Source of the DNA: Candidatus Zixiibacteriota bacterium | GTDB taxonomy: Bacteria; Zixibacteria; MSB-5A5; UBA10806; 4484-95 | DNA length: 39,939 nucleotides | NCBI GenBank assembly: GCA_029932605.1 | Contig: JAOZPT010000018.1 | Coordinates: forward strand, 1,790-41,728 | Direction of reading: 5' to 3' | Shown here: positions 3,065 to 23,709 of the stretch, in pieces | Numbering within the stretch: position 1 is the stretch's first letter | Layout: each line of letters opens with the position of its first letter | Notes under the pieces: model-generated | Seen by the model: only the letters and a program-made list of their open reading frames with translations | Databases searched by the model: none | What the model was told of the DNA's origin: nothing | Program-made: the position numbers and the translations under genes

Positions 3065-3790
3065 TTACGGTGGCGGCGGGGGGCCCAAACCCTTAAAATA
3101 CCTTACCAGATAAGTTACATCATTACCCGCAACATTGCCATCAGCGTTTGAATCACCCGCTCTTAAACTGCATGGACAACCAACCGAACCTTTAAAATAA
3201 CTTACAAGATAGGTAACGTCCGAACCTGTCCTAGAACGATTGCAGTTAGCGTCACCTCTAATGGCAGTATCCTCACCAATGTAAACAAAGGTATTGTAAA
3301 CCACCACGCTATCAATATTGCCATCGGGGTCCGAGATAAAAACTTCGTCAATAATGATCTCAACGGTTGTATCAGTAGAATAATCACAACCAAGAGCAAA
3401 TATTGCATTAAATAACAGACCTTCACCTTCTTCAAGGGGAGGCGTATCAGGACCTCCTGGCATATTAGCTACCCCGGAAACAAATAAGCTTCCCGGATGT
3501 TCCACGCCTGGATTTCCATCAAAATATTCCCATGTTGAAATACGCGAACCGATAGTGTCAGCTCCATAGGGTTCAAGAATATCCGAAACACTGCTTCTCA
3601 TAATAAGATTAAATCCACCGACAGGACAAAGATTTAGAAGATAAACAGGAATAGATATTACAGCTGTATCGCGATTAGTTTCACGGTATTCCATATAAAT
3701 GAAATTGGTACAGTTTTGAGAATAAGACCATCCCGTCAAGAACATCACCGCTATTAAAATTTCAAAGAGCCAAAAAATGCGCTTTGCCAT
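3065..3790 (-). CDS. Secreted cohesin-like plus dockerin protein (adaptor-like)
   Basis: Signal peptide and GGGGAG RBS. Cohesin pattern ISIPVYLLN..VGGFNL..SRISTWEYF..GEGLLF. C-terminal dockerin GDANCN..GSDVTYLVSYFKG / GDSNADG..GNDVTYLVRYFKG. Confidence 0.85.
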   Translation of the reverse strand: MAKRIFWLFEILIAVMFLTGWSYSQNCTNFIYMEYRETNRDTAVISIPVYLLNLCPVGGFNLIMRSSVSDILEPYGADTIGSRISTWEYFDGNPGVEHPGSLFVSGVANMPGGPDTPPLEEGEGLLFNAIFALGCDYSTDTTVEIIIDEVFISDPDGNIDSVVVYNTFVYIGEDTAIRGDANCNRSRTGSDVTYLVSYFKGSVGCPCSLRAGDSNADGNVAGNDVTYLVRYFKGLGPPPPP

Positions 3791-4135
3791 AAATTAATCT
3801 CCCCACTTTGATTAATTTTTTACTAAAACCTCCAACCTTTTTCATCCCATTAGCAATCTATTTCATACATCTCCAGCAAAACGCACATTAATAAACTCCA
3901 AAACCTGTTTCCAAATCATCAGTCTCCACTTCTCTCCCTGATGTGCATTTGTAAATTTCCCTTAACCTTCTCTTACCGCGGAACAAACCCCAATCAAATA
4001 TTAAATCAAGATACAAATTGTTTTGAAAATCTCCTTAATGACCCTTAATATTTGATTCTACTTCATTTTTTGTTATCCCACTTACACGAAGCATGACGTC
4101 CAGAAGTTATTGTAGTATTACTACGTCTGTATTCT

Positions 4136-4163
4136 AATATACACTCTTTATATTACCTGTCAA
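4136..4163 (-). promoter_or_regulatory. Sigma-70-type promoter for the leftward cohesin/dockerin genes
   Basis: TTGACA-N16-TATATT on the minus strand with an A-rich upstream element. Confidence 0.5.
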
Positions 4164-4284
4164 GAAAAAAATTAAATTTTTTTAAACAAAATAAAAATAT
4201 CTATAAAAATGAGAACTACAAATAAAACATAAAAATCTCTATGAAACGATTTTCATAAAAGTTGTAAAAAATTGCATTTTTCTC

Positions 4285-4313
4285 TTGACAACAAAATCCT
4301 CAAAAATTATCTT
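4285..4313 (+). promoter_or_regulatory. Sigma-70-type promoter for the small peptide gene
   Basis: TTGACA (4285..4290), 17-nt spacer, TATCTT (4308..4313). The upstream region is AT-rich. Confidence 0.65.
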
Positions 4314-4402
4314 GGAGTTAAAAGGGGTATGAGGGTGAGCTGGTGTTTTGGCAGCCCACTCTGTTAGGTTCAAAAAACCTCTAATTGAAGGGAGGTGATG
4401 TA

Positions 4403-4480
4403 ATGGAAGAAATCATCCTGGAAATTGAGGAACTGGAAGAAAGGGTCGCCCCTGCTGGTTATGCTGGTGGAGGTTTATAA
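4403..4480 (+). CDS. 25-aa small peptide MEEIILEIEELEERVAPAGYAGGGL (precursor-peptide-like)
   Basis: Below the ORF-track size cutoff. Near-perfect SD AAGGGAGGTGAT, with GGAGG 7 nt before the ATG. It has its own upstream promoter and downstream terminator. An acidic leader-like segment ending ELEERVAP is followed by a Gly/Ala-rich 8-mer. Confidence 0.8.
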   Translation: MEEIILEIEELEERVAPAGYAGGGL

Positions 4481-4507
4481 TCTAGAATTGAAACTAGTGT
4501 GTTCTAT

Positions 4508-4541
4508 GAAAACCGCCATGACCCGGCGGTTTTCTTCTTTT
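4508..4541 (+). terminator. Rho-independent terminator between the peptide gene and the convergent kinase gene
   Basis: GAAAACCGCC-ATGACCC-GGCGGTTTTC, a 10-bp stem followed by TTCTTTT. It may also act on the minus strand. Confidence 0.75.
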
Positions 4542-4555
4542 AGGAGGGACGCCCC

Positions 4556-7500
4556 TTATTGATTTATATCAACCGTAGCTTTCATCTTATCAACTAAAAA
4601 ATTAAACCTCTTGACAAAAGGTAACGCTTCTAACCCCTCGATATTACGTTCATCGGGAAACGCATCTACTAATATATTAAAAATGTTTTGCGCTTGCTTC
4701 ATTCTTTTCATAAAAACAGAATATTTACCACAATGAAATAGAATATCACTCTCAAGAACAATAGCTTTAAATATAAAATACATGCAACCAGAATTTTCAG
4801 CGGTTTCTTTAATTGTCTTTATCAATTCAAGAGCTGGATCATATCTTTTCCTTCTGTAATGAAATGCAGCAAGTATCATGTTATGATCAAGTTTTATTAT
4901 TACGTTCTGAATCTTCAAAGCCTTAAACCGTCGGAAAGACCTTTCAACATCATCATAATTGTTTTCCTTCAAATATATTTCAGCTAACGACACCAACGCC
5001 GAGCCAGCGATTTCACCAAAATCATACTTTATTGCCTCATCAACCAATTCCTCATACATTTTACCTGCTTCCGTCCTTAAAGTCAATCCAGCCAGCCTTG
5101 CCTCTAAAAGCTTCCCCTTAAAAATTTGCATCCTGGTTAAATTTTGCTTTTCCCCAAGTTGTCTTTGCAACTCTTGACATCGCCCGATATCTCCCATCAA
5201 TAGCTCAAGTTCGATTCCAGTCAGAAGAATATCCACTGCTAACTCCTGGTTTGACAAGCCGGCGCACATCACATCTGCCTGAGTGAGCATTCGCAAGGCA
5301 AGTTTGAAGTTGCCCATAGCCATACAATCTACTGCCAGAAGTTGACTTGCCTGCGCCTGATACATCCTGTGCTTCAGAGCCTTCGCAATATCCAGGGCTT
5401 TATGATTAGATTCGGCAGACTTAATAAAATTTCCGGTTTTATGATAAGCCTGGGCAATATTGGATATTATATTTAACTGTTGCTCTGCATAACCTATATC
5501 CACAGCTATCTCGTAACCCTTTTTAAAATACTCAAGCGCTTCCAGCGGCTTACCAGAATTCAAATTAAAAAAGCCGATATTGTTTAACACCAGTGTTTCC
5601 GACTGACGGTCCTTTGCCACCTGTGCACACTCCAAGGCCTTGTTAAATCTTCCCATAACCTCGGTGGTCCTACCAGTAAGGTCATAAATGATACCGATGT
5701 TGCTATTTATTTTTGCCTGTGCTGTCAGATCGTTTATCCTCTCGTTTATTTTAAGGGCTTTTTCATAATTCTCTAAAGCTTCATCGTATTTACCAATAGT
5801 CCACATTGCCAGACCAAGGTTGTTAAGGCAAGCTGCCTGGTGGGGAAGGTCATTATCCTTTCGATACAGGTTAAGGGCTTTATCAGTAAACTCTATTGAC
5901 TTAGTAAATTCCTGTCCTAATCGATACAAATCGCCAAGATTTTTATAGGTTATGGCCAAGGCTTTCCGATCATTTATCTTTTCTGCTACTTCGACTGCTG
6001 CTTTATACTTTTGTTCAGCGCGGACATTATCCGCTAAGGCCTTGGCAATATCTCCTGAAAGCAAAAGAGTATCAAATACAAGCAGGCTTTCTTCCTCATT
6101 ATCTTTAAGAAATGGAAAGACATTCTCAGCCATGCAAATGAACCTGTTGGCTTTATCATAATCAAAATCGTTAAACCACTTTAGTGCAGCATCGTAATTA
6201 TACCTTAATGCCTGGGAATGATTTTTCGCTAAGTAATAATGAAAAGCTAGCCCATCTATGTCCTGGGGATTTTTTAGCTTAATGTAATCTGCCACCTTTC
6301 TATGCATCGATAATCTACGCTCGGGTGAGAGATAACCATAAACAGCTTTAGCCATACTTTGACTTGAGAAAAAATAAGACCCTTGATCGTATTTCAACCA
6401 ACCATCTTTTCTTAACCGGCACAATTCCTTCTCTGTCTGAGATAAATCCAGATCCACAAGTTCAGAAAGAGTTTCACTATTTTGAGCAACATTCAAAATT
6501 GCCAACCATTGCAGTATTGCTAAAGACCTTTTGGTTAAAACATCGATTCTATCGTTGTAAATCCTACGGATATTTTCCGGCAATACTGAGTCATCAAACC
6601 GCTTGATGATTTCCCAGCCCTTCCTGCCAAATCGAAGGATGTTTTCATCGAGAAGATAATAAAGGTATTCACTAATTACTTCAGGATCACCACCGGATAG
6701 ATCCTCCATCTTATCAATGAATTCTTTATCTATCCGGTACCTCTTCATTAATTTTTCTAAATAAGAAACGGTGCGGTTGGGAAAACTGGTTAAATCATAC
6801 AATCGTATTTTATCCTTGAAATCGATTACATTTTTCGAGCAAGTAAACAGGATAATTTCCCGGGAAGTCTGCGAATCCGTATCGTATGGGCAGGCGACAT
6901 TTATAATTTCCTCGCATATATCATCCTGGCAGTTGATAAGATATACCGGTTCGTCTTGATCCGGCAATTTCCCTTCTTGGAAAATCTTTAACAACCGTTT
7001 CTGTAAGGGATTATAAGGGTTTTCCACTTTATTTATATCATAGCCTGATTCCCCATCTTTCCCGTTGGCCTTGTTCCTTTTCTCAAGCATATTTTGAATG
7101 TCATTTTTCTCATTATTCCAATCATCCTCAGATATCGGTACGACTCTCTCATTTCCAAGTTCAATTCCTGCAAGACAAACTACATCCTCGTAAAAACCGT
7201 TATTTTCATGTTTATTAGTTGAGACCACTACCAACGGCTTATTTACAGCCCTTTTCTTACAGAGTGTCTTGACAAATTCACTGGCAAATGGCCAGCATCC
7301 AGAATTAAAATAAAATCTCGAGTTTCCCTTGATTAGTTTATTTATCTCATTTTCAATTCCTAAAAGCTGGCATACTTCATACGGGTCAGCCGGTCTATCA
7401 AGTGGTTTTACCGACAGCATTTTGACTATTGTTTCGTTCAATGATTTATCCAAACTACCAGGAGGGGTTGGAGCTGATTCAGTAACCAGTTTAATTAATT

Positions 7501-8131
7501 CATCCTCATTTGAGGCGGAAAATGGCATCCTACCCTCGACAAGTTCGTATAATGTCACACCGATAGAATAAATGTCTGAAAAAGACGAGGCTTTATCACC
7601 GGTAAGTATCTCCGGAGCGATATATCCCAAAGTTCCGCTTTTTCCGGTGGGAGGTTTATTCAGGGGCTGGATAAGATTGAAATCTATCAGTTTTAATTCA
7701 CCTCTAAAATTGTAAACAAAATTCTGAGGTTTGTAATCGTTATAAACATAGCCTGAATTATATACAAAAAGAGCTATCTCAAGAATATTAAGGATGACTT
7801 TCCGTAGAGCTTTTTCCTCGAGTTTACCGCAGCTTGTCTGAAGGGTTGGACCATTTAGAAATTCCATGCAAAACCCGGTCAAATCAGTACTATCAATGAA
7901 ATCAAATGCTTCCACTACGCCCGGGTGTTTATGAAACTTCAAGAACCGGTACTCAGATTTAATAGCTTCCAAGTTATCAGAAGTTTTTTCTTTAAGCTGT
8001 TTGAAGGCCAAGAAATCATCTAACTTATTCCCCTTGGGAGTTTTTTTAGGACGAATCTTCCAGATTACGCATAATCCACCCTCACCAATTCTTTCTAATA
8101 ACTCGTAATCGTTGCTAAAATACTTATTCAT
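4556..8131 (-). CDS. Hanks-type Ser/Thr protein kinase with a degenerate STAND/AAA_16-like middle region and C-terminal TPR array
   Basis: Kinase motifs IGEGG, AFK, YNDYKPQN, DFN, GTLGYIAPE and SDIYSIG. STAND-like helical motifs LSGGDP and LPENIRRIYNDRIDVL. Multiple TPRs (NLGDLY, NNLGLAMW, SNIGIIY, NNIGFF, SNIAQAY). Confidence 0.85.
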   Translation of the reverse strand: MNKYFSNDYELLERIGEGGLCVIWKIRPKKTPKGNKLDDFLAFKQLKEKTSDNLEAIKSEYRFLKFHKHPGVVEAFDFIDSTDLTGFCMEFLNGPTLQTSCGKLEEKALRKVILNILEIALFVYNSGYVYNDYKPQNFVYNFRGELKLIDFNLIQPLNKPPTGKSGTLGYIAPEILTGDKASSFSDIYSIGVTLYELVEGRMPFSASNEDELIKLVTESAPTPPGSLDKSLNETIVKMLSVKPLDRPADPYEVCQLLGIENEINKLIKGNSRFYFNSGCWPFASEFVKTLCKKRAVNKPLVVVSTNKHENNGFYEDVVCLAGIELGNERVVPISEDDWNNEKNDIQNMLEKRNKANGKDGESGYDINKVENPYNPLQKRLLKIFQEGKLPDQDEPVYLINCQDDICEEIINVACPYDTDSQTSREIILFTCSKNVIDFKDKIRLYDLTSFPNRTVSYLEKLMKRYRIDKEFIDKMEDLSGGDPEVISEYLYYLLDENILRFGRKGWEIIKRFDDSVLPENIRRIYNDRIDVLTKRSLAILQWLAILNVAQNSETLSELVDLDLSQTEKELCRLRKDGWLKYDQGSYFFSSQSMAKAVYGYLSPERRLSMHRKVADYIKLKNPQDIDGLAFHYYLAKNHSQALRYNYDAALKWFNDFDYDKANRFICMAENVFPFLKDNEEESLLVFDTLLLSGDIAKALADNVRAEQKYKAAVEVAEKINDRKALAITYKNLGDLYRLGQEFTKSIEFTDKALNLYRKDNDLPHQAACLNNLGLAMWTIGKYDEALENYEKALKINERINDLTAQAKINSNIGIIYDLTGRTTEVMGRFNKALECAQVAKDRQSETLVLNNIGFFNLNSGKPLEALEYFKKGYEIAVDIGYAEQQLNIISNIAQAYHKTGNFIKSAESNHKALDIAKALKHRMYQAQASQLLAVDCMAMGNFKLALRMLTQADVMCAGLSNQELAVDILLTGIELELLMGDIGRCQELQRQLGEKQNLTRMQIFKGKLLEARLAGLTLRTEAGKMYEELVDEAIKYDFGEIAGSALVSLAEIYLKENNYDDVERSFRRFKALKIQNVIIKLDHNMILAAFHYRRKRYDPALELIKTIKETAENSGCMYFIFKAIVLESDILFHCGKYSVFMKRMKQAQNIFNILVDAFPDERNIEGLEALPFVKRFNFLVDKMKATVDINQ

Positions 8132-9855
8132 CGGAGGCCTGTGGCCATGGGAATCTCAATTGTAAAAGCAGCCCCACCCTCGTCAAGGTTTTCGGCAATT
8201 ATTTTACCGTTGTGGTTATTTATTATTTTCAAGCAGGTTGATAAACCCAGTCCATGACCGGCTCTCTTTGAAGTGATATGAGGTTCGAATATTTTCGGTA
8301 ATATATCCTCAGGTATGCCCGGCCCATTATCTGTGATAACAATCTTAACGTATGCTTTCTCGGGTAAAGCTTCAGCCTTAACTGTTATCTCACCCTCGCC
8401 CGCTCTATATTCAGCAAATATATCAACCGAATTTATAAACAGGTTTAAAAACACTTGGTGAAGTTGCCCCACATCAATATAGACCTTGGGTAGGTCAGCT
8501 GGAATATCGACATTGAATTTCACTCGTTTAAACTTGTTCTGTGGTCGAATGAATAAAATTAAATCTTCTATTAAGAGTTTTAAATCATAAGGAACCGGTT
8601 TGGAATCCAGAGTCGAGAAATCCATCAAACCATCGGAAAAACGCTTAATGCGGTCGACATTTTTAACGATGATATCGATCTTATTTTGGATTTTATTATG
8701 ATTCCCCTGGGACAAGTTTAAAGCCAGAAGTTGAGCATTGGTGGAAATAACGGTTAAATAGTTATTAAGCTCATGGCCAATGGCAGCCGCCATCTCCCCT
8801 TTAGCTATGAGTTTTTCAGACAATATAAGATATTGTTCTAAAACCACCTGTTCTGTAATATCCTCGATTAAAATTATATTTCCGATCGATTCTCCCTTGT
8901 AATCCTCAAAAGGGCAAAATCGAAGTTTCAAAATTATCTCCTCACCCTGGTAATCCACATGAAAACGGGATATCTGCAGTGGCTCATTTCTAATTGGAAA
9001 AATCGAATCAACAAAGGTAATGCGATACTTATCAGGTATAACATCGTTTATACTCAATCCTATCATCCCACCCTCTTCCGGGGGATAGTATGTCCAACCA
9101 ATTTTATTAAATATCTTCTCTGCCACCTCGTTGAATGATCTAATTATGCCTTTAGCATCTACTACCAGCAAGCCGATAGGCGTATTGGCGATGATATTCT
9201 GCTGGTATTTTTGGAGTTCCAACACCTTGGTATACAATCTCGCGTTATGGATTGCTAATGCCGCCTGAGCAGCAAACATCTCGAAAAGAGCTAAGTCTTG
9301 TTTTATAAAAACATTAGCCTGAGATGAGTTATCAAGATAGAGCACTCCTATGATTCTCTTTTTTATCATCAATGGCACGCACATCGCCGAACGGATGTTT
9401 AAATCGATAATAGAAGCTTTGCGAGAAAACCGGTCATCGGTTTGAGCATCAGAGGTGTATATCGATTTCCCGGTTTTGACCACCATATCAGCGATGGTGG
9501 TGGATATCCTCATATCTTCAGAATCCATCTGCTCTTTTTTGATATTATGCGCTGTCTTAAATTTCAGCTTACCATTATCATCTAAGAGCATCAAAAAACC
9601 GCGTTCCGCTTTTAACAGTTTAATGGACTTTTTCATCACGATATCAAGCATATCATCGAGGATAAGAGTAGAATTTACCACACAGCTAACCTCATACAAA
9701 GCTGCCAGGTCCTCGTAACCGACACGCTCGCCAAAGTCCACCACCTTATCAACCTCTTTCTCTTTGGCGCCGAGGTTAAATTTCATAAGCTCGGTGGCAA
9801 TATTTAAACCTTCGGTTTTATCAAAATTAACAGAATTGTCCATATTAGCCGACAT
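8128..9855 (-). CDS. Cytoplasmic GAF-PAS sensor histidine kinase
   Basis: GAF (IRSAMCVPL..IGVLYLD..AALAIHNARLY), PAS (IIANTPIGLLVVD..FN..AEKIF), H-box GHELNNYL, N-box QVFLNL..NS, DNGPGI and GHGLGLS. The stop overlaps the kinase start (ATGA). Confidence 0.9.
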   Translation of the reverse strand: MSANMDNSVNFDKTEGLNIATELMKFNLGAKEKEVDKVVDFGERVGYEDLAALYEVSCVVNSTLILDDMLDIVMKKSIKLLKAERGFLMLLDDNGKLKFKTAHNIKKEQMDSEDMRISTTIADMVVKTGKSIYTSDAQTDDRFSRKASIIDLNIRSAMCVPLMIKKRIIGVLYLDNSSQANVFIKQDLALFEMFAAQAALAIHNARLYTKVLELQKYQQNIIANTPIGLLVVDAKGIIRSFNEVAEKIFNKIGWTYYPPEEGGMIGLSINDVIPDKYRITFVDSIFPIRNEPLQISRFHVDYQGEEIILKLRFCPFEDYKGESIGNIILIEDITEQVVLEQYLILSEKLIAKGEMAAAIGHELNNYLTVISTNAQLLALNLSQGNHNKIQNKIDIIVKNVDRIKRFSDGLMDFSTLDSKPVPYDLKLLIEDLILFIRPQNKFKRVKFNVDIPADLPKVYIDVGQLHQVFLNLFINSVDIFAEYRAGEGEITVKAEALPEKAYVKIVITDNGPGIPEDILPKIFEPHITSKRAGHGLGLSTCLKIINNHNGKIIAENLDEGGAAFTIEIPMATGLR

Positions 9856-15400: not shown

Positions 15401-17587
15401 TTATTTAATTAACGTAGCTTTTTTTACCTCTTTGAAGTCACTTGTTTTCATCCTGTAAAAATACACACCAGATGAAACGCTGTTGCCATGATTATCCTCA
15501 CCGTTCCAGATTAGGTAATGGTAACCAGCTGGATATTCAGATGAGGTCAGGTTACGGACAATCCTGCCTGCCATATCAAAAATATCGATACATACAAATG
15601 TTTTATCGGTTATATAAAAGCCGATCTTTGAACTAGTGTTAAAGGGATTTGGATAATTATCATATAAAACGTATGCCTCTGGAATCTCGGAATCGAATTT
15701 GCCACGGCAGGTTAGCATACGGCCATATCTATCAGAAGCCTGTAATTCAGTAAAACTTATACGGCCATCGCCACCAGCAACAACAGAGGTCCTGAAAACT
15801 TGTTGTTGCCCTGGAGATAACCCCTCACCGGAAAGGTCATACATAAGCACGCTAAGTATTTCGCCGTTATCATAAAAAGCCATTTCGAAATGGCTAAGGT
15901 TCTCCGGCGGAGAAAGTTCTAAGCCCTGGTGGTTTAACCTCACAAGCAGACCAGCCACCGATACGCTACTATGCACTGATATGTTAATAACATCTTTATA
16001 ATCTTCGGGTATGGTCACGTCAACGATCTCACCAGATATATCCAGGCCAAGAGGTGGATCGATGTTGCCGTTGATTATATTTAACAGATAGACAAGGTCT
16101 GCCACTGTCCCCGGTATACCATCCATGTTGATATCAGAAGCTTGAACCTGAATTGGATCGAATGGATACTCCTCGGGATTAACCAGATGGTTCACAAAAA
16201 GCACCATGTCAGCGATTTCAAATGGTATACCGTTAAGGTTTATATCACCCACCATAACATCCTCAGGGCCAATCACATCAATATTACCATCAACCAATTC
16301 AGGATGAATGAGGTTATGACCCGACGAATCCGAAAGCGCATTATCAGTAAGATCCTGGGTTAAAAAAATCACAGGCAGCTCTACACCAATTAAATTCTCG
16401 TCTGAGGAAACGGCAAAATTCAGGTTAAATACGGTACCTGTGCCAGGTGCCAAGGGCGGTGAAACAGGTTCGCCTATTAAATCCGCCAAGCCAACGATTC
16501 GGGCTGTCCCTAAACCTGCATCGTCAAAATTGATATTGAAATACTCCCAACTTCCAAGCCTGCCAGTTCGGGTAACACTTGAAAGAGTTAAAGACTCATA
16601 GTCCCAGAAAATAAGAATCTCGAAACCACCCACAATCGATGTTAGTCCATTATTGTTTAACGATACCGGCAACTCTACGCTTGAGCCCGGCAAGGCATTT
16701 ACCGAACCTATAATCAATTCAGTCGGAGTGACATTTAATTCAATATCAAGATTGACAACCCCTCCCTGGCTATCATCCACCGTAAACTGCAGGTCATAAG
16801 TACCAGAACTTCCCTCCGAAGGGACCCATCGAAAATAGTAACGGATATGACCAGGTTCGTTAACAATCTCCTCGAAAGTATAATTCGGGTCAGAAAAATC
16901 TACCGTGAGCGTCATCAGGTCGTTATCTTCATCAGTGCAATCCACATAATATGCAACCTCAAATTGCTCGTTAATATCAAAACTTCCTTCCGACGGCTCA
17001 TTAAACTCAGGTGGATTGTTAGGCGGGAAATACAACTTGCAGTAGATAGCCTCGGGAACCCAGCTGAGCATACCTGACTGGTCACCAAATACCAGAGTCC
17101 CATTCATGGGATTGGCACCCGGGAAGAGATCCATTGTATCACCTAGAACCTCAAAATTATCAGTTGTATGCATAGCAAACTCAGCCACCATTATCCAGGT
17201 ATAATTTGTGTGCAAATACGGGTTAGGCAAACCAAAAAGATCTGCCCAGCCAACTATCGACTGGTTGGAAACACCCTCAATCGGATAGTCAATATCGGGG
17301 TTGAGAAATGAGCAATCATCCCAGTCTGTTAACGGATAATAAAGATTGCCACCATCTCTGGAGGTTATATAATCGTTTTCGGTGCCAAGGGGAATATGTA
17401 CAAAAGCAACACTGTCATCAGTCTTGACCCAGACCGGTATCAAGATATCGCTATCTAAAGCGGCAAGTATAATACTTCCATCAAGGTTGCCAAAAATAAT
17501 CGAATCTGGCTCATCGGGGTCTTGAGCATAAACCATGCTTCCCAAAAAACACAAAAGCAAAACCCCATAAGCAATTTTTCTAGCCAT
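15401..17587 (-). CDS. Secreted cohesin-Ig-cohesin-dockerin protein with C-terminal FlgD/T9SS-type-A-like tail
   Basis: Start revised to the ATG at 17587 (GGGAG RBS, signal peptide MARKIAYG..VYA-Q). Ig motif NNPPEF..DEDND. Cohesin PGSSVELPVSL..VGGFEILI. Dockerin GDINLNG / SDINMDG. Tail NYPNPFN...KKATLIK. Confidence 0.85.
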   Translation of the reverse strand: MARKIAYGVLLLCFLGSMVYAQDPDEPDSIIFGNLDGSIILAALDSDILIPVWVKTDDSVAFVHIPLGTENDYITSRDGGNLYYPLTDWDDCSFLNPDIDYPIEGVSNQSIVGWADLFGLPNPYLHTNYTWIMVAEFAMHTTDNFEVLGDTMDLFPGANPMNGTLVFGDQSGMLSWVPEAIYCKLYFPPNNPPEFNEPSEGSFDINEQFEVAYYVDCTDEDNDLMTLTVDFSDPNYTFEEIVNEPGHIRYYFRWVPSEGSSGTYDLQFTVDDSQGGVVNLDIELNVTPTELIIGSVNALPGSSVELPVSLNNNGLTSIVGGFEILIFWDYESLTLSSVTRTGRLGSWEYFNINFDDAGLGTARIVGLADLIGEPVSPPLAPGTGTVFNLNFAVSSDENLIGVELPVIFLTQDLTDNALSDSSGHNLIHPELVDGNIDVIGPEDVMVGDINLNGIPFEIADMVLFVNHLVNPEEYPFDPIQVQASDINMDGIPGTVADLVYLLNIINGNIDPPLGLDISGEIVDVTIPEDYKDVINISVHSSVSVAGLLVRLNHQGLELSPPENLSHFEMAFYDNGEILSVLMYDLSGEGLSPGQQQVFRTSVVAGGDGRISFTELQASDRYGRMLTCRGKFDSEIPEAYVLYDNYPNPFNTSSKIGFYITDKTFVCIDIFDMAGRIVRNLTSSEYPAGYHYLIWNGEDNHGNSVSSGVYFYRMKTSDFKEVKKATLIK

Positions 17588-17717
17588 AAACAGCTCTCCC
17601 AATTTAAATATTTTCTCTACAAAGCAAAACTGCAAATCCTTCCGCGAAGCGCTACTAAGGACAATCCATGCAGATTGCCATTTATTAATTTAACCATTAT
17701 ATAAAAAAAATCAAGAA

Positions 17718-18661: not shown

Positions 18662-21247
18662 TTACTTAATACAGGTTATTTTCTTTGAGGCCTTGAAATC
18701 CCCTGCTTTCATAGACACAAAATATGTTCCCGAAGCTAAGTTTGTTGCATTCAAAGAAACGGAGTGTTTTCCAGGACTTACGTTGCCATCAACAAGCGTA
18801 GTAACCAGCCGTCCGCTCACATCATATACATTAAGGGTGACATGGGCAGATTTGCTTACTTCATAAGAAATCATGGTGTTCTGATTAAATGGATTCGGGT
18901 AGTTCCGAATCAGACAATAGGATGATGGTTTATTACTTGTCGTTGGGATATCAACCTGGGTGAGGTCGAATATATACATCGACCGCCCATGCGTGCCCGA
19001 TACAAGTATCCTGCTGTTGTTGTGAAGTTCAATATCTAAAACCGGACAAATTGGATGATCCTCGCCCATCACCTGCCATACAGAACCACCATCCTCGGTG
19101 TAAAACATGCCGAAGTCAGTGCCGATGAATAACCTCTGCGGATTTTGTGGATCTGGAAGAATATCGTTTACAGGGATATCCACAAGGTTACCACTGATGT
19201 CTTGCCAGTTAGTGCCATAATCGGTTGTTTTAAAGATATGGGGTAATAACTCATCCACCTTGTAACCCGAGAAGGTTACATAAGCAGTAGCCACATCAAA
19301 GACATCGGCTGTTACCCTGGTGCACCAGCGGTTGGGAAGGCTATCTGATACCATTGTCCAGGTTGAACCCCCATCTGTGGTTACCCATACACGGCTATCA
19401 TCGGTTCCAGCCCAAATAACATCCTCGGATAATGGTGATTGGCTGATGGTGGTGATAGTCCCGTAAACAAGGTTACCATGCCCGCCACCACCGGTCAAAT
19501 CCGGACTTATGGGATACCAATATTGGCCGCCATTGGTTGTTTTGTATAACCTCTCAGCGCCATAAAATAATACCCGGCTATCAAGGGGACTCATTACCAC
19601 AGGTGTGCACCAGTTGCATCGCTCATTACCATCGATGCCATTGAGAATCTGTTCCCAGTCTTGACCAAGGTTTGTTGATTTACCTAACCAACCATACTGA
19701 GCCTCAGCGTAGATAATGTTGGAATTATTAAAATCGATATTAGTATAAAATCCATCTCCATAAAAGATGACATCCCAGTCATCCATTCCGCCATAAAGTG
19801 TCCGGGGAGTGCTATTATCCTGGGTGCCACCATAAAGCCGATAAGGAAGCTGGTTGTCAATGGTTATGGCATAGAACTGGGTAATAGGCAGATCGTAACA
19901 TTTCGTCCAGTAACCGCCGCCATTTTGTGAAATGAATACACCACCATCGTTGCCAACAACCATATATTCAGGAAGGTTCGGGTCTTGATACATTGCATGC
20001 ATGTCCACATGCATCGAGCCCATGATGGAATACCAGTGAGCCCCGCCATCCGTGCTTCTCCACATATCCACATCACCAAAATAGACTATATCAGGATTGG
20101 TAGGGTGAACCCAGATCTTGCCAAAATACCAGCCAAAACCGGAAAACGTTGAGGGGCTTGGTGAAACAAGCCGCGACTCCCAGTTATCACCACCATCGGT
20201 TGTGCGCCAGAAACCCATTAAGTTACCGGGATGGTCAACATAACTGGCATATAGGATATCAGGGTCGGTATCAGAAACAGCCAAGCCGATGCGACCGACA
20301 TTGGGTGATGGTGCCGGTAAACCTCTTGTTAGTTGAAACCAATTATCTCCTCCGTCCGTAGATTTCCATATACCGCTAGTCATACCACCAACCCGTCGAT
20401 ACTGGGGATTACGAATCCGTTCCCACATGGCCGCATACACGATTTGGGGATCAGATGAGTTGATTACAACATCAACAGCACCGGTTGAATCGGTTAAAAA
20501 AAGCACTTGTTCCCAGGAATTACCACCATCAGTGCTTCTATAAACACCGCGCTGTGAATTGGTGCCAAACAACTTCCCCATAACAGCTACGAATATCCTG
20601 TCAGTATCAATTGGATCGATAGCGATACGCCCGATATGATAGGACTCTGGAAGGCCAATAAACTCCCAGGAATCACCGGCGTTGGTAGTGCGATAGAGCC
20701 CGGTGCCAGCATAGGAATCGCCGCTTGAGTTAGCCTCGCCAGTGCCAAGATACAAACAGTCAGGATTGATAGGGTCAATAACAAGGTCACCTACCGAAAG
20801 GCTGGGAACATCATCGGATACCGGTTGCCAGTTCTCACCGCCATTGGTAGATTTGAAAACACCGCCAAGAGCGGCTCCAGCATATATAGTATAAGGTTCA
20901 TCAGGATGAACCGCCATGGCTGTAATACGTCCTCCGACATTAGAGGGACCGGCCAACGTACAGTTGAGTTCAGTCATATTCAATGTAGCATTCCTCACCG
21001 CAATGGCTCGCTCTAAAGCCCGACGATATGCTTTAAGAGGAACACTGTCGTATGGGTAAGCCCGTTGTAAAGTAAACCATTCGGATGGCTTCCGGCTGGT
21101 ATCGCTTCCTCGTTTCTTTAGCTTATACGCCTTAAACGAATCCGGTGTGATAACTTGGTCGTTTTTATCAACTAAGACAATTATTATCAACGATATTGCA
21201 ATTAACACCAGTAATTGCATACATACAATAAGTATTTTGCGATTCAT
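18662..21247 (-). CDS. Secreted BNR/Asp-box (VPS10/sortilin/GH74-like) beta-propeller protein with C-terminal FlgD/T9SS-like tail
   Basis: Start revised to the ATG at 21247 (GGAGGA RBS). GPSNVGGRI motif, many (S/T)TDGG.(N/S/T)W Asp-boxes, HVDMH, GGTQDN and THGRS. Tail NYPNPFN...KKITCIK. Confidence 0.85.
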   Translation of the reverse strand: MNRKILIVCMQLLVLIAISLIIIVLVDKNDQVITPDSFKAYKLKKRGSDTSRKPSEWFTLQRAYPYDSVPLKAYRRALERAIAVRNATLNMTELNCTLAGPSNVGGRITAMAVHPDEPYTIYAGAALGGVFKSTNGGENWQPVSDDVPSLSVGDLVIDPINPDCLYLGTGEANSSGDSYAGTGLYRTTNAGDSWEFIGLPESYHIGRIAIDPIDTDRIFVAVMGKLFGTNSQRGVYRSTDGGNSWEQVLFLTDSTGAVDVVINSSDPQIVYAAMWERIRNPQYRRVGGMTSGIWKSTDGGDNWFQLTRGLPAPSPNVGRIGLAVSDTDPDILYASYVDHPGNLMGFWRTTDGGDNWESRLVSPSPSTFSGFGWYFGKIWVHPTNPDIVYFGDVDMWRSTDGGAHWYSIMGSMHVDMHAMYQDPNLPEYMVVGNDGGVFISQNGGGYWTKCYDLPITQFYAITIDNQLPYRLYGGTQDNSTPRTLYGGMDDWDVIFYGDGFYTNIDFNNSNIIYAEAQYGWLGKSTNLGQDWEQILNGIDGNERCNWCTPVVMSPLDSRVLFYGAERLYKTTNGGQYWYPISPDLTGGGGHGNLVYGTITTISQSPLSEDVIWAGTDDSRVWVTTDGGSTWTMVSDSLPNRWCTRVTADVFDVATAYVTFSGYKVDELLPHIFKTTDYGTNWQDISGNLVDIPVNDILPDPQNPQRLFIGTDFGMFYTEDGGSVWQVMGEDHPICPVLDIELHNNSRILVSGTHGRSMYIFDLTQVDIPTTSNKPSSYCLIRNYPNPFNQNTMISYEVSKSAHVTLNVYDVSGRLVTTLVDGNVSPGKHSVSLNATNLASGTYFVSMKAGDFKASKKITCIK

Positions 21248-21534
21248 TATCAAATCCTCCAAATTCAATTTTAAAGTTATATTTCACTTTTTAACAATAT
21301 ATATAACAACCTCGAAATCTCCAAGAATTTTAAGTTTAATCAGAAATGTTTCCTGCTGTTACACACCCGATTATAAAAGAACTCACAATTTAAAATAACC
21401 ATCGCTTAACAATGTAACATGTTGATTTTTGTAACGAGGATTTCAATTCCATTGCACAAGGAAATTCAACATTGTTTGCTACTCTCAACATAAATCCGAT
21501 AAAGACTAAGCAAACGATTAATGAGAGGATCATT

Positions 21535-23709
21535 ATGTCAAGACATAATAGATTACAGTTCATATTATTAGCATTAATTTTGATCTTTATTCCCGGACTT
21601 ACTCGAGGACAAGGAGTTGAGTATGTAAATTCTACACTATGGACAACAGTGTCAGATATACAGATCGTTGGGAACTACGCCTATTGTGTTTTTCGCGATG
21701 GCCTGGTGATTCTCGATATCTCTAATCCTACTAATCCAACTCTTTTAAGTCAATTCTATTTACAGGGAAATGGAGAGGGGATTTTCGTCCAGGATAATTT
21801 TACATTTTTGGTAAATGGATATTCTGGCCTTCAAATAATCGATATCTCGGACCCTGAAGCACCCGAACTTATTGGGACTTACGACACACCGGGTTTTGCC
21901 AAGGATATCTTTGTTAAAGATAATTACGCTTATGTTGCCGATGGGAACGCTGGTTTAACTATAATCAATATAACAGACCCCACAAAACCTAACTTTTTTG
22001 GGAATCATCCCACACGCTATGCTAAGGGTTTGCATATTGAAGACCATATTTTATATTTGGTTGACCATAATCACGGCCTCAAGATTTTCGATATTAACGA
22101 TCCAGCTTCTCCAAGATTAATCGGAAGCTGCGACACTCCCGGCTACGCCGAGGACATTTATATACATGATGGCTTAGCGTATATAGCTGATGGAGCGTTA
22201 GGCCTTCAAATAATCACGATTGAACAACCACGGGAACCTCTTATTATTGGAAGTTATAATACTCCGGGATATTCAAGAGACATCGCTATCTCGGGAGACT
22301 ATGCTTTTTTAGCCTCCGATATCTGCGGCCTTGAAATCATCGATATTTCCTCTCCCTCAAGCCCTGTGTATATAACACAATACAATACACCAAACCAGGC
22401 AATCGGTGTTGTTATCAAAGATAGTATCGCTTACGTTACTGGTAAACACTTCGGCCTTGAGATCGTCAATATCACAGAACCTGGAAATCCTGAGCACACT
22501 GGAAGCTATGAAACCCCACATTCTTCACGAGGCGTCTTTATTCAGGGACATTTCACTTACGTAGCAAATTACGGAAACGGACTTAAAATCTTAGACATAA
22601 CAAATCCTGAAAATCCCATGGTTGTGGGATGCTATGATACCCCTGGCTATTCTCACGACGTTTTCGTTTTGGGTGATTTTGCATATATAGCGGATTATGA
22701 ACATGGTCTCCAGATAATCGATATCTCCAACCCCACTAATCCTATCTTCAAGGGATGTTACAACACTCCGGGTTATGCTATCGATGTTGTAGTCAGAAGT
22801 GGTTATGCATATGTGGCTGACTATGACCATAACGTTCAAATTATCGATATATCCAACCCTGAAAGCCCCTATTATGTCACAACATTTGTAATACCCAACT
22901 ATACAGCCGGAATTTACATTCGAGATAATCTGCTATATGTAGCTTACAGCGCCTTCAATACCGGCATTCAATGGGCAGGTATTAGTATAGCCGATATTAC
23001 CGACCCGACAAATCCCGTCTGTATCGGTGATTTCAACACCGTAGGTTACTTTTATGACCTGTTTATCTCAGAAGATAATATTGTATACTGCAGTTTCACC
23101 TATAAAGAAAATTTAGGACCGTTACATTATGGACTTAAGATTATCGATGTAAACAATCCTGAATCACCATCCGAACTGGGAACTTATTATATAACCGGAG
23201 AACAATATCCCAAAGGGATATTCGTTTCAGGTGAACATGCATTTTTAGCCTCCGGTTTTAATAGACTTGAGGTGATAGATATCTCCTCTCCATCAAACCC
23301 AGAGCTTGAGGCATACTATAATACCCCGGGTTATGCTTATGATGTTTTCGTAGATGATGGCTATATCTATGTTGCCGATGAAAGCTCAGTGCTTATCCTT
23401 CGTTTGGCACAAACAAAAATTAACAGCGAAATAACATTAACGCCAAAGGCGTTTAAGCTATTACAAAACTATCCGAATCCATTCAATAACGCAACAACTC
23501 TGAATTTTTCCCTACCTAAACCCGGTCAGATAAAGCTCTCTGTCTATAATCTTTTGGGTCAACAGGTAGCTACATTATTTGAGGGTACTATGGATACAGG
23601 CGAACATAATATCACCTGGAATACTAATGACCTCCCGTCGGGTGTCTATCTTGCAAGGTTACAGAGCAATAGCATCAATCAGAATATAAAGATGTTGATG
23701 TTAAAGTAA
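21535..23709 (+). CDS. Secreted LVIVD-repeat beta-propeller protein with C-terminal FlgD/T9SS-like tail
   Basis: Start revised to the ATG at 21535 (GAGAGG RBS, signal peptide). More than ten ~42-aa repeats of YAYVAD...GLQIIDISNP..P...G.YDTPG. Tail QNYPNPFN...KMLMLK. Confidence 0.9.
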   Translation: MSRHNRLQFILLALILIFIPGLTRGQGVEYVNSTLWTTVSDIQIVGNYAYCVFRDGLVILDISNPTNPTLLSQFYLQGNGEGIFVQDNFTFLVNGYSGLQIIDISDPEAPELIGTYDTPGFAKDIFVKDNYAYVADGNAGLTIINITDPTKPNFFGNHPTRYAKGLHIEDHILYLVDHNHGLKIFDINDPASPRLIGSCDTPGYAEDIYIHDGLAYIADGALGLQIITIEQPREPLIIGSYNTPGYSRDIAISGDYAFLASDICGLEIIDISSPSSPVYITQYNTPNQAIGVVIKDSIAYVTGKHFGLEIVNITEPGNPEHTGSYETPHSSRGVFIQGHFTYVANYGNGLKILDITNPENPMVVGCYDTPGYSHDVFVLGDFAYIADYEHGLQIIDISNPTNPIFKGCYNTPGYAIDVVVRSGYAYVADYDHNVQIIDISNPESPYYVTTFVIPNYTAGIYIRDNLLYVAYSAFNTGIQWAGISIADITDPTNPVCIGDFNTVGYFYDLFISEDNIVYCSFTYKENLGPLHYGLKIIDVNNPESPSELGTYYITGEQYPKGIFVSGEHAFLASGFNRLEVIDISSPSNPELEAYYNTPGYAYDVFVDDGYIYVADESSVLILRLAQTKINSEITLTPKAFKLLQNYPNPFNNATTLNFSLPKPGQIKLSVYNLLGQQVATLFEGTMDTGEHNITWNTNDLPSGVYLARLQSNSINQNIKMLMLK

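Follow-up and report, generated by a model that had tools for sequence, protein, structure and literature searches.

In the accessible text of two preprints on daptides, the leader motif ELExMEAP stands directly before the core and is cut after P(−1), and the clusters named are from Actinomycetota and Bacillota (bioRxiv 10.1101/2023.03.08.531785 and 10.1101/2025.07.11.664356). As far as that text describes them, daptides have an invariant, modified C-terminal Thr, a core that forms an aliphatic helix of about 20 residues, and separate ABC transporters. The daptide peptidase (MpaP/DapP) carries an RRE fused N-terminally to an M50 intramembrane (site-2) protease. The epipeptide system YydF/YydG/YydH/YydIJ of Bacillus subtilis also brings together a small peptide, a membrane protease of the M50 type (HExxH) and export. 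In export assemblies, the MacA/EmrA-type adaptor ordinarily works with an inner-membrane pump. In Firmicutes, the RRNPP group (Rap, NprR, PlcR and PrgX) provides peptide signalling with TPR receptors.

The locus studied here shares elements with each of these systems. Its tiny gene lies in the window (the whole stretch of DNA analysed, 39,939 nucleotides), convergent with a kinase operon, and its candidate partner is encoded elsewhere in the genome. The features are as follows:

4285–4313, plus strand: predicted sigma-70-like promoter, TTGACA (4285–4290), 17-nt spacer, TATCTT (4308–4313); 10 of 12 consensus matches
4321–4402, plus strand: putative 5′ untranslated leader, about 82 nt long, its transcription start inferred from the −10 box
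4390–4395, plus strand: predicted Shine–Dalgarno (SD) site, read from the sequence as GGGAGG and separated from the ATG by 7 nt
4403–4480, plus strand: peptide gene, ATG at 4403 to TAA at 4478–4480, 25 codons, product MEEIILEIEELEERVAPAGYAGGGL
4403–4453, plus strand: leader part, codons 1–17, MEEIILEIEELEERVAP, with five positions invariant across 62 peptides
4454–4480, plus strand: core or tail part, codons 18–25, AGYAGGGL, plus the TAA stop, compared with the tails of 62 peptides
4508–4544, plus strand: predicted intrinsic terminator between the two convergent stop codons, its hairpin arms GAAAACCGCC and GGCGGTTTTC enclosing a 7-nt loop and leading into a T run
4556–8131, minus strand: 1191-aa Ser/Thr protein kinase (c0), carrying a TPR array at its C-terminus and lacking any membrane segment (Pfam Pkinase 1.8e-34, TPR_12 3e-32)
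8128–9855, minus strand: GAF-PAS histidine kinase (c1, by Pfam), overlapping the c0 start
G000:C1:26806-29163, unlinked to the peptide gene: single-copy RRE–M50 protease–adaptor fusion, 785 aa (Pfam PqqD, Peptidase_M50 and HlyD domains)

A preliminary description had proposed a complete transcription unit at 4403–4480, and its promoter, SD, ORF and intrinsic terminator were all found in the window where it had placed them. Its reading of the peptide as free of Ser, Thr and Cys held on translation; the product has a net charge of −6 and no Sec signal. The promoter comes with an extended upstream box, TTTTTCTC; TTTTTCTCTTGACA was counted four times genome-wide, where 0.05 occurrences are expected, and a TTGACA box lies at the same distance in the upstream regions of orthologues. 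Within the putative untranslated leader, CCTCT (4378–4382) could pair with the SD of the gene, and a CUCC/CCUC motif was seen 2–9 nt 5′ of the SD in all 15 aligned orthologues. The ORF list also held a TTG-initiated form of 31 aa from 4385, but the SD lies inside this extension, so that ATG 4403 is the likely start. The terminator hairpin (10 bp, 4508–4534; −20.1 kcal/mol, z −2.29, with 1 of 200 shuffles folding equally well) was identical in sequence in 7 of 8 orthologous loci. Taken on the window alone, the promoter and terminator signals are weak evidence, as the region 3800–4900 held five promoter-like sites against 4.3 expected from shuffles and two terminator-like sites against 0.6. At orthologous loci in other genera the same promoter box, SD, frame and terminator are found again, and the peptide is conserved with them, so the arrangement is more than chance; the gene appears to be monocistronic, with its own promoter, SD and terminator kept in orthologues. 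A reading as an attenuator or leader peptide was rejected, given the gene's own terminator and the convergent orientation of the next gene.

The gene at 4403–4480 is real and under purifying selection. Six-frame genome searches with a profile of the peptide matched the tiny frame in 232 of the 285 genomes of the phylum, which the record names give as Zixibacteria (E ≤ 0.01), bearing out the expectation that homologues would keep the reading frame; this genome holds a single copy, the next best six-frame match having E = 1. Among 17 distinct orthologue sequences (136 pairs), pS was 0.64 and pN 0.094 (pN/pS 0.15), and third positions varied in 17 of 17 codons, compared with 6 for first and 8 for second positions. 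An SD of the GGAGG type stood at the proper distance in 40 of the 40 distinct peptide genes examined. A chance ORF, lying in a small RNA or in the 3′ region of the kinase operon, might be argued for from a length of just 25 codons, from the chance-level count of promoter-like sites and from the lack of a family for the peptide in Pfam and NCBIfam at E ≤ 10. We consider this very improbable, given a frame kept in 232 genomes, variation concentrated at third positions, an SD before every gene examined and no Rfam family match anywhere in the window.

Across 62 peptides the leader followed the motif [I/V]ExLEx[K/R][I/V]AP, which reads IEELEERVAP in this peptide. E(−9), L(−7), E(−6), A(−2) and P(−1) were invariant (62 of 62), and K/R at −4 and I/V at −3 were likewise found in all 62. 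The tails were variable, Gly/Ser-rich and 7–17 residues long (eight residues in 35 of 62), with a consensus x-G-hydrophobic-S-[L/Q]-G-G-Q in which G2, S4, G6 and G7 are strongly conserved phylum-wide; within the order the pattern was AGY/F-x-G-x-G-S. No tail contained Cys or Thr (0 of 62), and Ser at tail position 4 is missing from this peptide and variable within its order. A conserved leader with a variable tail had been set beforehand as the test of a precursor, and this is the pattern that the homologues showed, with five positions invariant; judged by these alignments, the peptide is of the precursor type. A proposed kinship with LEPR-XLL export signals did not hold, as NF012209 (LEPR-8K, 24 positions) gave no match at E ≤ 1 with 15 candidates scored in the genome. 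The LanB/PEARL-type N-domain (Lant_dehydr_N, PF04738) had no match in this genome, with its control silent in all 14 reference genomes. Literature searches with LEERIAP, LEEKIAP, LEERVAP and LEEKVAP returned only papers on fungal taxonomy and pollen, unrelated by title.

The likeness to daptide leaders that had been pointed out in the preliminary description stands in part. Compared with the daptide precursor MpaA/DapA, as given in the accessible text, this family has the same short precursor with an acidic leader motif ending in Ala-Pro before the core, and its register agrees with ELExMEAP at L(−7), E(−6), A(−2) and P(−1), while −8, −4 and −3 differ. It is not a daptide proper. None of the 62 tails ends in the Thr described for daptides (this one ends in Leu), and the tails are 7–17 residues long and Gly/Ser-rich, in contrast to a helical core of about 20 residues. 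There is one precursor per genome, and a MacA/EmrA-type periplasmic adaptor sits on the protease itself in place of separate ABC transporters. The family belongs to a diderm, uncultured phylum, unlike the Actinomycetota and Bacillota of the described clusters.

Maturation in trans by a non-adjacent partner had been envisaged, together with a genome check for an RRE protein, and this genome does encode such a candidate, the single RRE–M50–adaptor fusion on contig C1. Its homologues are named ‘putative peptide zinc metalloprotease protein’ by JGI. The best NCBIfam match was NF041824, the daptide intramembrane metalloprotease, with the same N-terminal fusion of RRE and M50 (site-2) protease as in MpaP/DapP. 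The upstream neighbour of the peptide gene in other families matched it at E 2.6e-63 (214 bits) over profile positions 7–377 of 379, and also has the HlyD adaptor; the fusion of this genome matched that neighbour at 1.3e-138 and NF041824 at 1.5e-58. All NF041824 scores stayed below the curated cut-off of 300 bits (exceeded in 0 of 285 genomes), and the fusion protein is therefore a homologue of MpaP, not its equivalent. The catalytic motifs of M50 proteases are present (HEMSH ... NPLLKLDG), and HExxH and N306/P309/L313/D314 were invariant in 73 fusion-protein homologues. Similarity to the YydH/LiaK family (NF058609) was also seen, at 1e-12 to 1e-15, far below its 225-bit cut-off. The epipeptide system differs further in its radical SAM epimerase, of which no counterpart is conserved nearby here, and in a protease without the RRE and adaptor domains of the fusion; as in that system the peptide would be matured by the protease and then exported.

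A structural model of fusion residues 27–115 (pLDDT 93.9) gave ten best PDB matches that were all RiPP recognition elements, among them TbiB1 with leader (TM 0.70), lasso B1, TruD, LynD and PqqD (TM 0.64). The predicted domain has the three-strand, three-helix fold of the TbiB1, TruD/LynD and PqqD RREs (TM 0.64–0.70 to 5v1v, 6jx3 and 5sxy). Sequence similarity to these is marginal: the RRE profile found only PqqD 3g2b (E 0.31) in the PDB by sequence alone, so that fold comparison was needed. The modelled fold thus points to a RiPP recognition element on a cognate protein in this genome, and this element would serve a protease-exporter where the known ones serve modifying enzymes. In its C-terminal half the fusion matched MacA/EmrA in Foldseek (3fpp, 1.2e-17; 4tko, 9.1e-17) and is predicted to have the adaptor fold of the MacAB-TolC and EmrAB-TolC systems, with a long alpha-hairpin. 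Unlike in MacA and EmrA, the membrane anchor is replaced by the whole RRE–M50 protease, and no inner-membrane pump of the MacB/EmrB type is linked to the fusion gene here. Four TolC-family proteins are encoded in the genome. Our literature search, with subscription journals and bioRxiv supplements outside its scope, returned nothing on a RiPP site-2/intramembrane protease combined with an HlyD or membrane fusion protein, and nothing on the peptide–fusion system among the titles and abstract openings listed for Zixibacteria and RiPPs.

Peptide and fusion were found together in 225 of the 285 genomes, neither was found in 40, the peptide only in 7 and the protease only in 13, in a cross-tabulation made by hand from two profile searches and covering related, not independent, genomes. 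Both were jointly absent from genera g5 and g7, families f3 and f4, 21 genomes of f9 and 5 of f16. Completeness is 80–93% for six of the seven peptide-only genomes and 98% for the remaining one, G083. Gene neighbourhoods, whose examination had been recommended, showed the protease gene immediately upstream and in the same orientation at 32 of the 62 peptide genes sampled. Because peptide and protease are unlinked in this genome, their pairing here rests on co-occurrence among related genomes. The same leader was also found beside fusion homologues in 10 of 17 loci examined from records not titled as Zixibacteria, among them records titled as Acidobacteria, Verrucomicrobia, Gemmatimonadota, Deltaproteobacteria and Burkholderiales. 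A UbiA prenyltransferase upstream in the f19 loci was lineage-specific.

The most conserved local neighbour of the peptide gene is the kinase-TPR gene, which the preliminary description did not mention. It was the next downstream gene, convergent, for 50 of 62 peptide genes (stop-to-stop gaps of 22–521 nt) and was convergent with the peptide gene in 17 of the 18 peptide-bearing genomes of the order; it adjoined the peptide gene even where the protease gene had moved away. The histidine-kinase gene overlaps its start, which places the two in the same operon, and followed it in 51 of 61 loci. Genus g7 has kept this operon but lacks both peptide and protease, which shows that the kinase can do without the peptide. 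The adjacency may also be partly neutral, since such tight convergent spacing leaves little room for rearrangement breakpoints. A tiny encoded peptide beside a cytoplasmic, TPR-containing regulator recalls RRNPP signalling; this is a functional analogy only, with no homology, and it differs in that the peptide here lacks a Sec signal and would leave the cell by another route, with a Ser/Thr kinase as the candidate receptor.

We favour an explanation that we regard as probable, with reservations. The monocistronic gene would be translated into a 25-residue acidic precursor in which a 17-residue leader precedes a tail of 8 residues, and IEELEERVAP would act as a docking tag for the PqqD-like N-terminal RRE of the C1 fusion. 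The M50 intramembrane zinc protease domain would then cut after Ala-Pro, by analogy with the daptide pair MpaA/MpaP, freeing AGYAGGGL (about 664 Da, calculated), which the fused MacA/EmrA-type periplasmic adaptor would pass on for release through a TolC-family channel. Since this scheme involves no tailoring enzyme, the mini-peptide produced is probably unmodified or carries minimal modification. The stop-to-stop arrangement with the Ser/Thr-kinase-TPR/histidine-kinase operon across the phylum makes a signal or regulatory role the most likely, either as a self-produced signal or as a regulatory input or output of the adjoining sensor operon. We infer binding, cleavage site, export and signalling role alike from comparison. 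Some observations sit less easily with this explanation: specific ligands are not usually as small and as rich in Gly as this tail, an adaptor of this type would ordinarily call for an inner-membrane pump and none is linked, and some genomes have the peptide without the protease (7) or the reverse (13).

Modification of the product has to be weighed in two forms. That this is a genuine daptide precursor, its C-terminus turned into an amine, would suit the in-register leader and a partner protease whose closest NCBIfam relative is the daptide peptidase. The daptide tailoring families, though, are absent from this genome or below cut-off: DapB/MpaB (daptide_RRE, NF041823) had no match in it (with a control silent everywhere), and daptide_DH (DapC, NF041822), daptide_amino (DapD, NF041821) and daptide_MTase (DapM, NF041820) reached 62.8, 191.9 and 69.9 bits against cut-offs of 300, 450 and 175. 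These last three matches are generic, the control genomes matching too. With no C-terminal Thr, no tailoring enzymes in the genome and no NCBIfam match for the peptide at E ≤ 10, it is not a daptide, and we find the contrary hardly credible. Tailoring of another kind, in which enzymes encoded elsewhere (a GNAT, an unlinked radical SAM) modify the tail and the protease-adaptor carries out the last step, would be in keeping with the strong phylum-wide conservation of tail positions G2, S4, G6 and G7. In all 4 f1 genomes sampled, the gene immediately after the protease gene encodes a GNAT acetyltransferase (Pfam 7.6e-16), which makes some tailoring possible even under our favoured explanation, but no such GNAT was seen in four sampled genomes of other families; a TldD/PmbA pair precedes the protease gene in 3 of 4 sampled f1 genomes. 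In one f8 genome (L060), an AlbA-like radical SAM gene lies directly after the peptide gene. It is missing from the other four of the five f8 loci sampled, and we rejected the link as incidental; no sampled locus outside f8 has a radical SAM gene beside the peptide gene, so the YydG epimerase of epipeptides has no regular counterpart there. No tailoring gene was conserved beside peptide or protease over 61 sampled loci, and with tails free of Cys and Thr, and of Ser 4 in this peptide, we think such tailoring unlikely.

The other alternative concerns where the peptide acts. The whole peptide, or its freed leader, might bind the TPR array of the kinase inside the cell, the protease-adaptor setting its level by removal or export, which would make the system an export-coupled switch and not an external signal. 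The kinase-TPR has no membrane segment (maximum 19-residue hydropathy 1.51) and is the most constant neighbour of the peptide gene; the leader is highly acidic, and many TPR ligands are highly acidic. In a partial Mantel test over 43 loci, TPR distance followed tail distance slightly better (partial r 0.147) than did the kinase-domain control (partial r 0.015). With 103 of 2000 permutations as high, this covariation was borderline and is not counted as support, and genus g7 has the kinase without the peptide. We judge intracellular action improbable, and retain the explanation by docking, cleavage and release.

A bolder proposal, which we put forward tentatively, is that the peptide, the RRE–M50–adaptor fusion and the kinase-TPR/histidine-kinase operon may form an undescribed diderm signalling circuit, with an intramembrane cut, a pump-free conduit from protease through adaptor to TolC, and a kinase operon that senses how much of the peptide is present, either within the cell or outside it. 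A much larger, cross-phylum family of secreted Gly/Asn/Pro-rich peptides might then share the ELEERIAP tag and the conduit.

The peptide gene is under the reporting size of gene callers, yet it is among the most conserved small genes of the phylum. If our explanation is true, it would belong to a minimal two-part system, in which a leader-tagged peptide is recognized, cut and exported by one protein akin to the daptide leader peptidase, but without tailoring chemistry. RRE-guided leader recognition would then extend beyond natural-product biosynthesis and also serve to process and release tiny peptides, without further chemistry, in two-membrane bacteria, along an export route with an intramembrane protease in the pump's place, and a large class of orphan kinase-TPR sensors would gain a candidate ligand. 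The leader tag itself makes it simple to search metagenomes for short ORFs that lack annotation.

The promoter, Shine–Dalgarno (SD) site, open reading frame (ORF) and terminator that the preliminary description had read around the peptide gene were all found, between window positions 4285 and 4534, and are listed here with the neighbouring genes.

The peptide gene, its signals and its neighbours in the window
3065-3790, minus strand: 241-aa protein with a weak dockerin-like end, divergent neighbour of the peptide gene
4285-4313, plus strand: promoter-like site TTGACA-17-TATCTT (promoter scan)
4390-4395, plus strand: SD site GGGAGG, 7 nt 5' of the ATG
4403 (ATG) to 4478-4480 (TAA), plus strand: peptide ORF, encoding MEEIILEIEELEERVAPAGYAGGGL
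4508-4534, plus strand: terminator hairpin, then a T run (terminator scan; fold -20.1 kcal/mol, z -2.29)
4556-8131, minus strand: 1191-aa Ser/Thr kinase with a TPR array (kinase-TPR), convergent neighbour
8128-9855, minus strand: GAF-PAS histidine kinase, overlapping the kinase-TPR start

On window evidence alone the promoter and terminator signals were not special; scan counts around the peptide gene were 5 promoter-like sites (4.3 expected) and 2 terminator-like sites (0.6 expected). No Rfam family matched anywhere in the window, the peptide had no Pfam or NCBIfam match at E ≤ 10, and a search of the window's genome (G000) found only one copy. An extended -35 box, TTTTTCTCTTGACA (window 4272-4290; contig C67:4570-4590 of G000), occurs four times in the genome against 0.05 expected, and sister genera retain it 5' of the peptide gene; its role may be that of a shared promoter or regulator element.

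Judged by its conservation, the peptide ORF is a real, translated gene. DNA searching recovered the region in 8 of 40 related genomes, and all eight matches translated in the same frame to a 22–25-residue peptide. An 8-peptide profile matched in 118 of 285 genomes of the class, and a broader 39-peptide profile matched in 232 of them at E ≤ 0.01, each time in an open frame a few dozen codons long (class and phylum searches having covered one set of 285 genomes); the homology search that had been proposed as a check thus returned homologues with a conserved reading frame. Across the last 17 codons, in 17 distinct nucleotide versions from the order of the window genome, pS was 0.64 and pN 0.094 (pN/pS 0.15; 136 pairs), and variable sites numbered 17/17 at third codon positions, 6 at first positions and 8 at second positions. 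A GGAGG-type SD stood at the right distance in all 40 distinct peptide genes examined, and the -35 box, SD and terminator hairpin recurred across orthologous loci. A pyrimidine motif (CCTCT within window 4378-4395; CUCC or CCUC in relatives) was found 2–9 nt upstream of the SD in 15/15 aligned orthologous 5' regions, and in the sister family motif and SD together read CTCC-GGAA-GGAG, possibly a small SD-sequestering hairpin; because of this conservation near the SD and the possible hairpin, translational control of the peptide is suggested.

Alignment of 62 peptides from 61 loci revealed the conserved leader and variable core that would be expected of a precursor. Counting back from the Pro of Ala-Pro at -1, E(-9), L(-7), E(-6), A(-2) and P(-1) were invariant, position -4 was always K or R, and -3 always I or V. 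The tails after Ala-Pro vary in sequence and in length (7–17 residues, with 8 in 35/62) around the consensus x-G-hydrophobic-S-[L/Q]-G-G-Q, and none contains Cys or Thr; the window tail, AGYAGGGL, is the sole Ser-free one. Within the window genome's order the tail pattern is AG[Y/F]-x-G-x-G-S, the fourth residue being S, I, T or A. At one locus (L064:7735-8311, genome G039) two tandem peptide genes have tails extended beyond the usual GGQ terminus by NLWGG(G/F)G(W)G, and similar Trp/Gly-rich extensions were seen in several members of families f9, f13, f15 and f16 (families and genera being numbered within the 285-genome set, with f1 that of the window genome).

In 20 contexts of 11–16 kb fetched from other families, the gene immediately upstream, in the orientation of the peptide gene, often encoded a protein of ~770 aa. 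This product carries Peptidase_M50 and HlyD (Pfam) and matched NF041824 (daptide_HExxH, the intramembrane metalloprotease of daptides) from profile position 7 to 377 of 379 (E 2.6e-63), at 214 bits and so below the 300-bit cut-off; it also matched YydH/LiaK at 1e-12 and several adaptor families (NCBIfam). G000 has one homologue, unlinked, at C1:26806-29163 (785 aa; 1.3e-138 and 34% identity against that upstream neighbour), with these Pfam domains.

Domains of the C1 protease-adaptor
Residues 50-100: PqqD (weak match)
Residues 203-278: M50
Residues 576-753: HlyD

The HExxH motif (HEMSH) and N306, P309, L313 and D314 were invariant in 73 homologues. In an AlphaFold2 model of the whole protein (pLDDT 81.4), the N-domain is built of three strands and three helices and is followed by a helical membrane domain and an adaptor. 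The adaptor half matches the TolC-pump proteins MacA and EmrA at 1e-17; G000 has four TolC-family genes. When the N-domain was folded alone (residues 27-115, 31-sequence alignment, pLDDT 93.9), its ten best PDB matches were all RiPP recognition elements (RREs), among them leader-bound TbiB1 (TM 0.70, E 1.5e-3), lasso B1, TruD, LynD and PqqD (TM 0.64); by sequence alone, the PDB yielded only PqqD (E 0.31). Around the unlinked gene (L066, G000:C1:23846-30186), a ~300-aa GNAT acetyltransferase follows 3' on the same strand in 4/4 sampled f1 genomes, and a divergent TldD/PmbA peptidase pair lies 5' in 3/4; neither was seen beside the protease-adaptor in four sampled genomes of other families, and both are possible lineage-specific helpers. 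In a single f8 genome, an AlbA-like radical SAM gene (343 aa, L060:6123-7151) directly follows the peptide gene; it was not found at the four other sampled f8 loci.

NF041824 matches, mostly a single ORF of ~770–800 aa and none over the cut-off, occurred in 238/285 genomes. Cross-tabulated by hand from the two profile searches, with family subtotals that agree with the search tallies, peptide and protease were both present in 225 and both absent from 40 of the 285 genomes, which are related and hence non-independent. The protease alone was found in 13 genomes and the peptide alone in seven (G019, G046, G083, G107, G110, G204 and G236), six of them 80–93% complete and G083 98% complete with a weak peptide match (E 0.0016). 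Joint absence covered genus g5 (f1), genus g7 (sister family), families f3 and f4, 21 f9 genomes and 5 f16 genomes. Linkage was scored at 61 loci from 59 genomes (the window plus sets of 20 and 40), chosen from the match lists to span families. In 32/62 cases the peptide gene was immediately preceded, in the same orientation, by the protease gene; these cases include all sampled f9, f13, f15 and f17 loci and most f5 loci; f14 genomes had it at one of two peptide loci each, and it was unlinked in f1, f2, f7, f8, f10, f12, f16 and f19. The main reading of the preliminary description, a leader-core precursor served by a partner in trans, is supported by this unlinked, co-occurring homologue of the daptide peptidase.

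Daptide precursors are described as having an ELExMEAP leader motif, with Pro numbered -1, and a C-terminal Thr that does not vary, the leader being removed by MpaP, an intramembrane site-2 protease with an RRE fused to its N-terminus (bioRxiv 10.1101/2023.03.08.531785); that Thr is given as the only conserved core residue, and DapB, DapC, DapD and DapM as tailoring enzymes beside the leader peptidase DapP (bioRxiv 10.1101/2025.07.11.664356). The proposed likeness held for the leader, in which L(-7), E(-6), A(-2) and P(-1) fall in the register of the motif as described, but not for daptide chemistry: 0/62 tails end in Thr, and in G000 daptide_DH (62.8 bits, cut-off 300), daptide_amino (191.9, cut-off 450) and daptide_MTase (69.9, cut-off 175) all fell short, with matches of a kind also found in control genomes. 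The daptide_RRE profile had no match in G000, its control being silent in reference genomes too. With no terminal Thr and with tailoring enzymes absent or below cut-off, daptide identity was ruled out; since the leader register agrees and the defining chemistry is absent, the system acts, by analogy, as the daptide leader/peptidase half does. A suggested resemblance to LEPR-XLL was not borne out (no match to the model at E ≤ 1 in G000), and a search with a silent control found no LanB/PEARL-type domain in G000.

A leader-pattern scan of species-representative genomes gave 33 confirmed loci, of which we analysed the 17 not titled Zixibacteria, leaving out the other 16. By title these were Limnocylindrales, Eisenbacteria, Acidobacteria, Bryobacterales, Verrucomicrobia (four), Gemmatimonadota (four), Cyclobacteriaceae, Deltaproteobacteria, Burkholderiales, Methylocella and 'bacterium' (L145), the last of which looks like a Zixibacteria-type locus. 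Small genes with an EELEERIAP leader, one to nine per locus, were present in 16/17, and tails in the non-Zixibacteria-type loci were usually 25–45 residues long, with a high content of Gly, Asn and Pro. A protease-adaptor homologue was adjacent in 10/17 (identity 30–33% across most of the protein, rising to 46% in shorter stretches; E 1e-20 to 1e-145), and several other loci end at contig edges. In the Methylocella-titled record (L130:3998-5005) an EELEERVAP tag begins a 335-residue protein rather than a mini-peptide. Six loci (L127, L131, L132, L134, L136 and L144), titled Eisenbacteria, Acidobacteria, Verrucomicrobia, Gemmatimonadales and Burkholderiales, contain precursor genes in tandem that share the leader and have nearly identical long Gly/Asn/Pro-rich tails; this likeness between records of different phyla suggests that tail types are drawn from a common set or that entire cassettes have spread horizontally.

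The kinase-TPR gene, whose product has no membrane-like segment by hydropathy, was the next downstream, convergent gene for 50/62 peptide genes, with stop-to-stop gaps of 22–521 nt, mostly <115 nt (75 nt in the window, with the terminator in between). It adjoins the peptide gene in 17/18 peptide-bearing genomes of the window genome's order, the 18th having both genes at contig ends. The genes are usually arranged protease > peptide > < kinase-TPR < GAF-PAS histidine kinase < (DUF4390) < Omp85-like, and where the protease gene has moved away, as in G000, the peptide gene stayed with kinase-TPR. Genus g7 (L069-L071; G013, G021 and G011) keeps the histidine-kinase/kinase-TPR operon (45% and 22–32% identity to the window genes), but the operon is not followed by a peptide gene and these genomes lack a protease-adaptor; genus g5 lacks the operon, peptide and protease alike. 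Covariation between tail and TPR distances, given kinase-domain distance, was borderline at best (partial Mantel, 43 loci: r 0.147, 103/2000 permutations as high; reverse control: r 0.015, 871/2000). Elsewhere the window is rich in type IX secretion cargo with Por_Secre_tail/FlgD_ig ends (601-2889, 15401-17635, 18662-21268 and 21472-23709), including a cohesin-domain protein, a sortilin-like protein and an LVIVD-repeat protein.

A literature search found no description of a peptide plus RRE-M50-adaptor system. Binding, cleavage site, export and function of the peptide are what we infer from these comparisons. Together, these results identify the peptide gene as an orphaned member of an undescribed, phylum-wide leader-peptide/RRE-M50-adaptor module, related to the daptide leader peptidase, which has no tailoring chemistry and keeps a persistent, unexplained tie to a kinase-TPR sensor operon.
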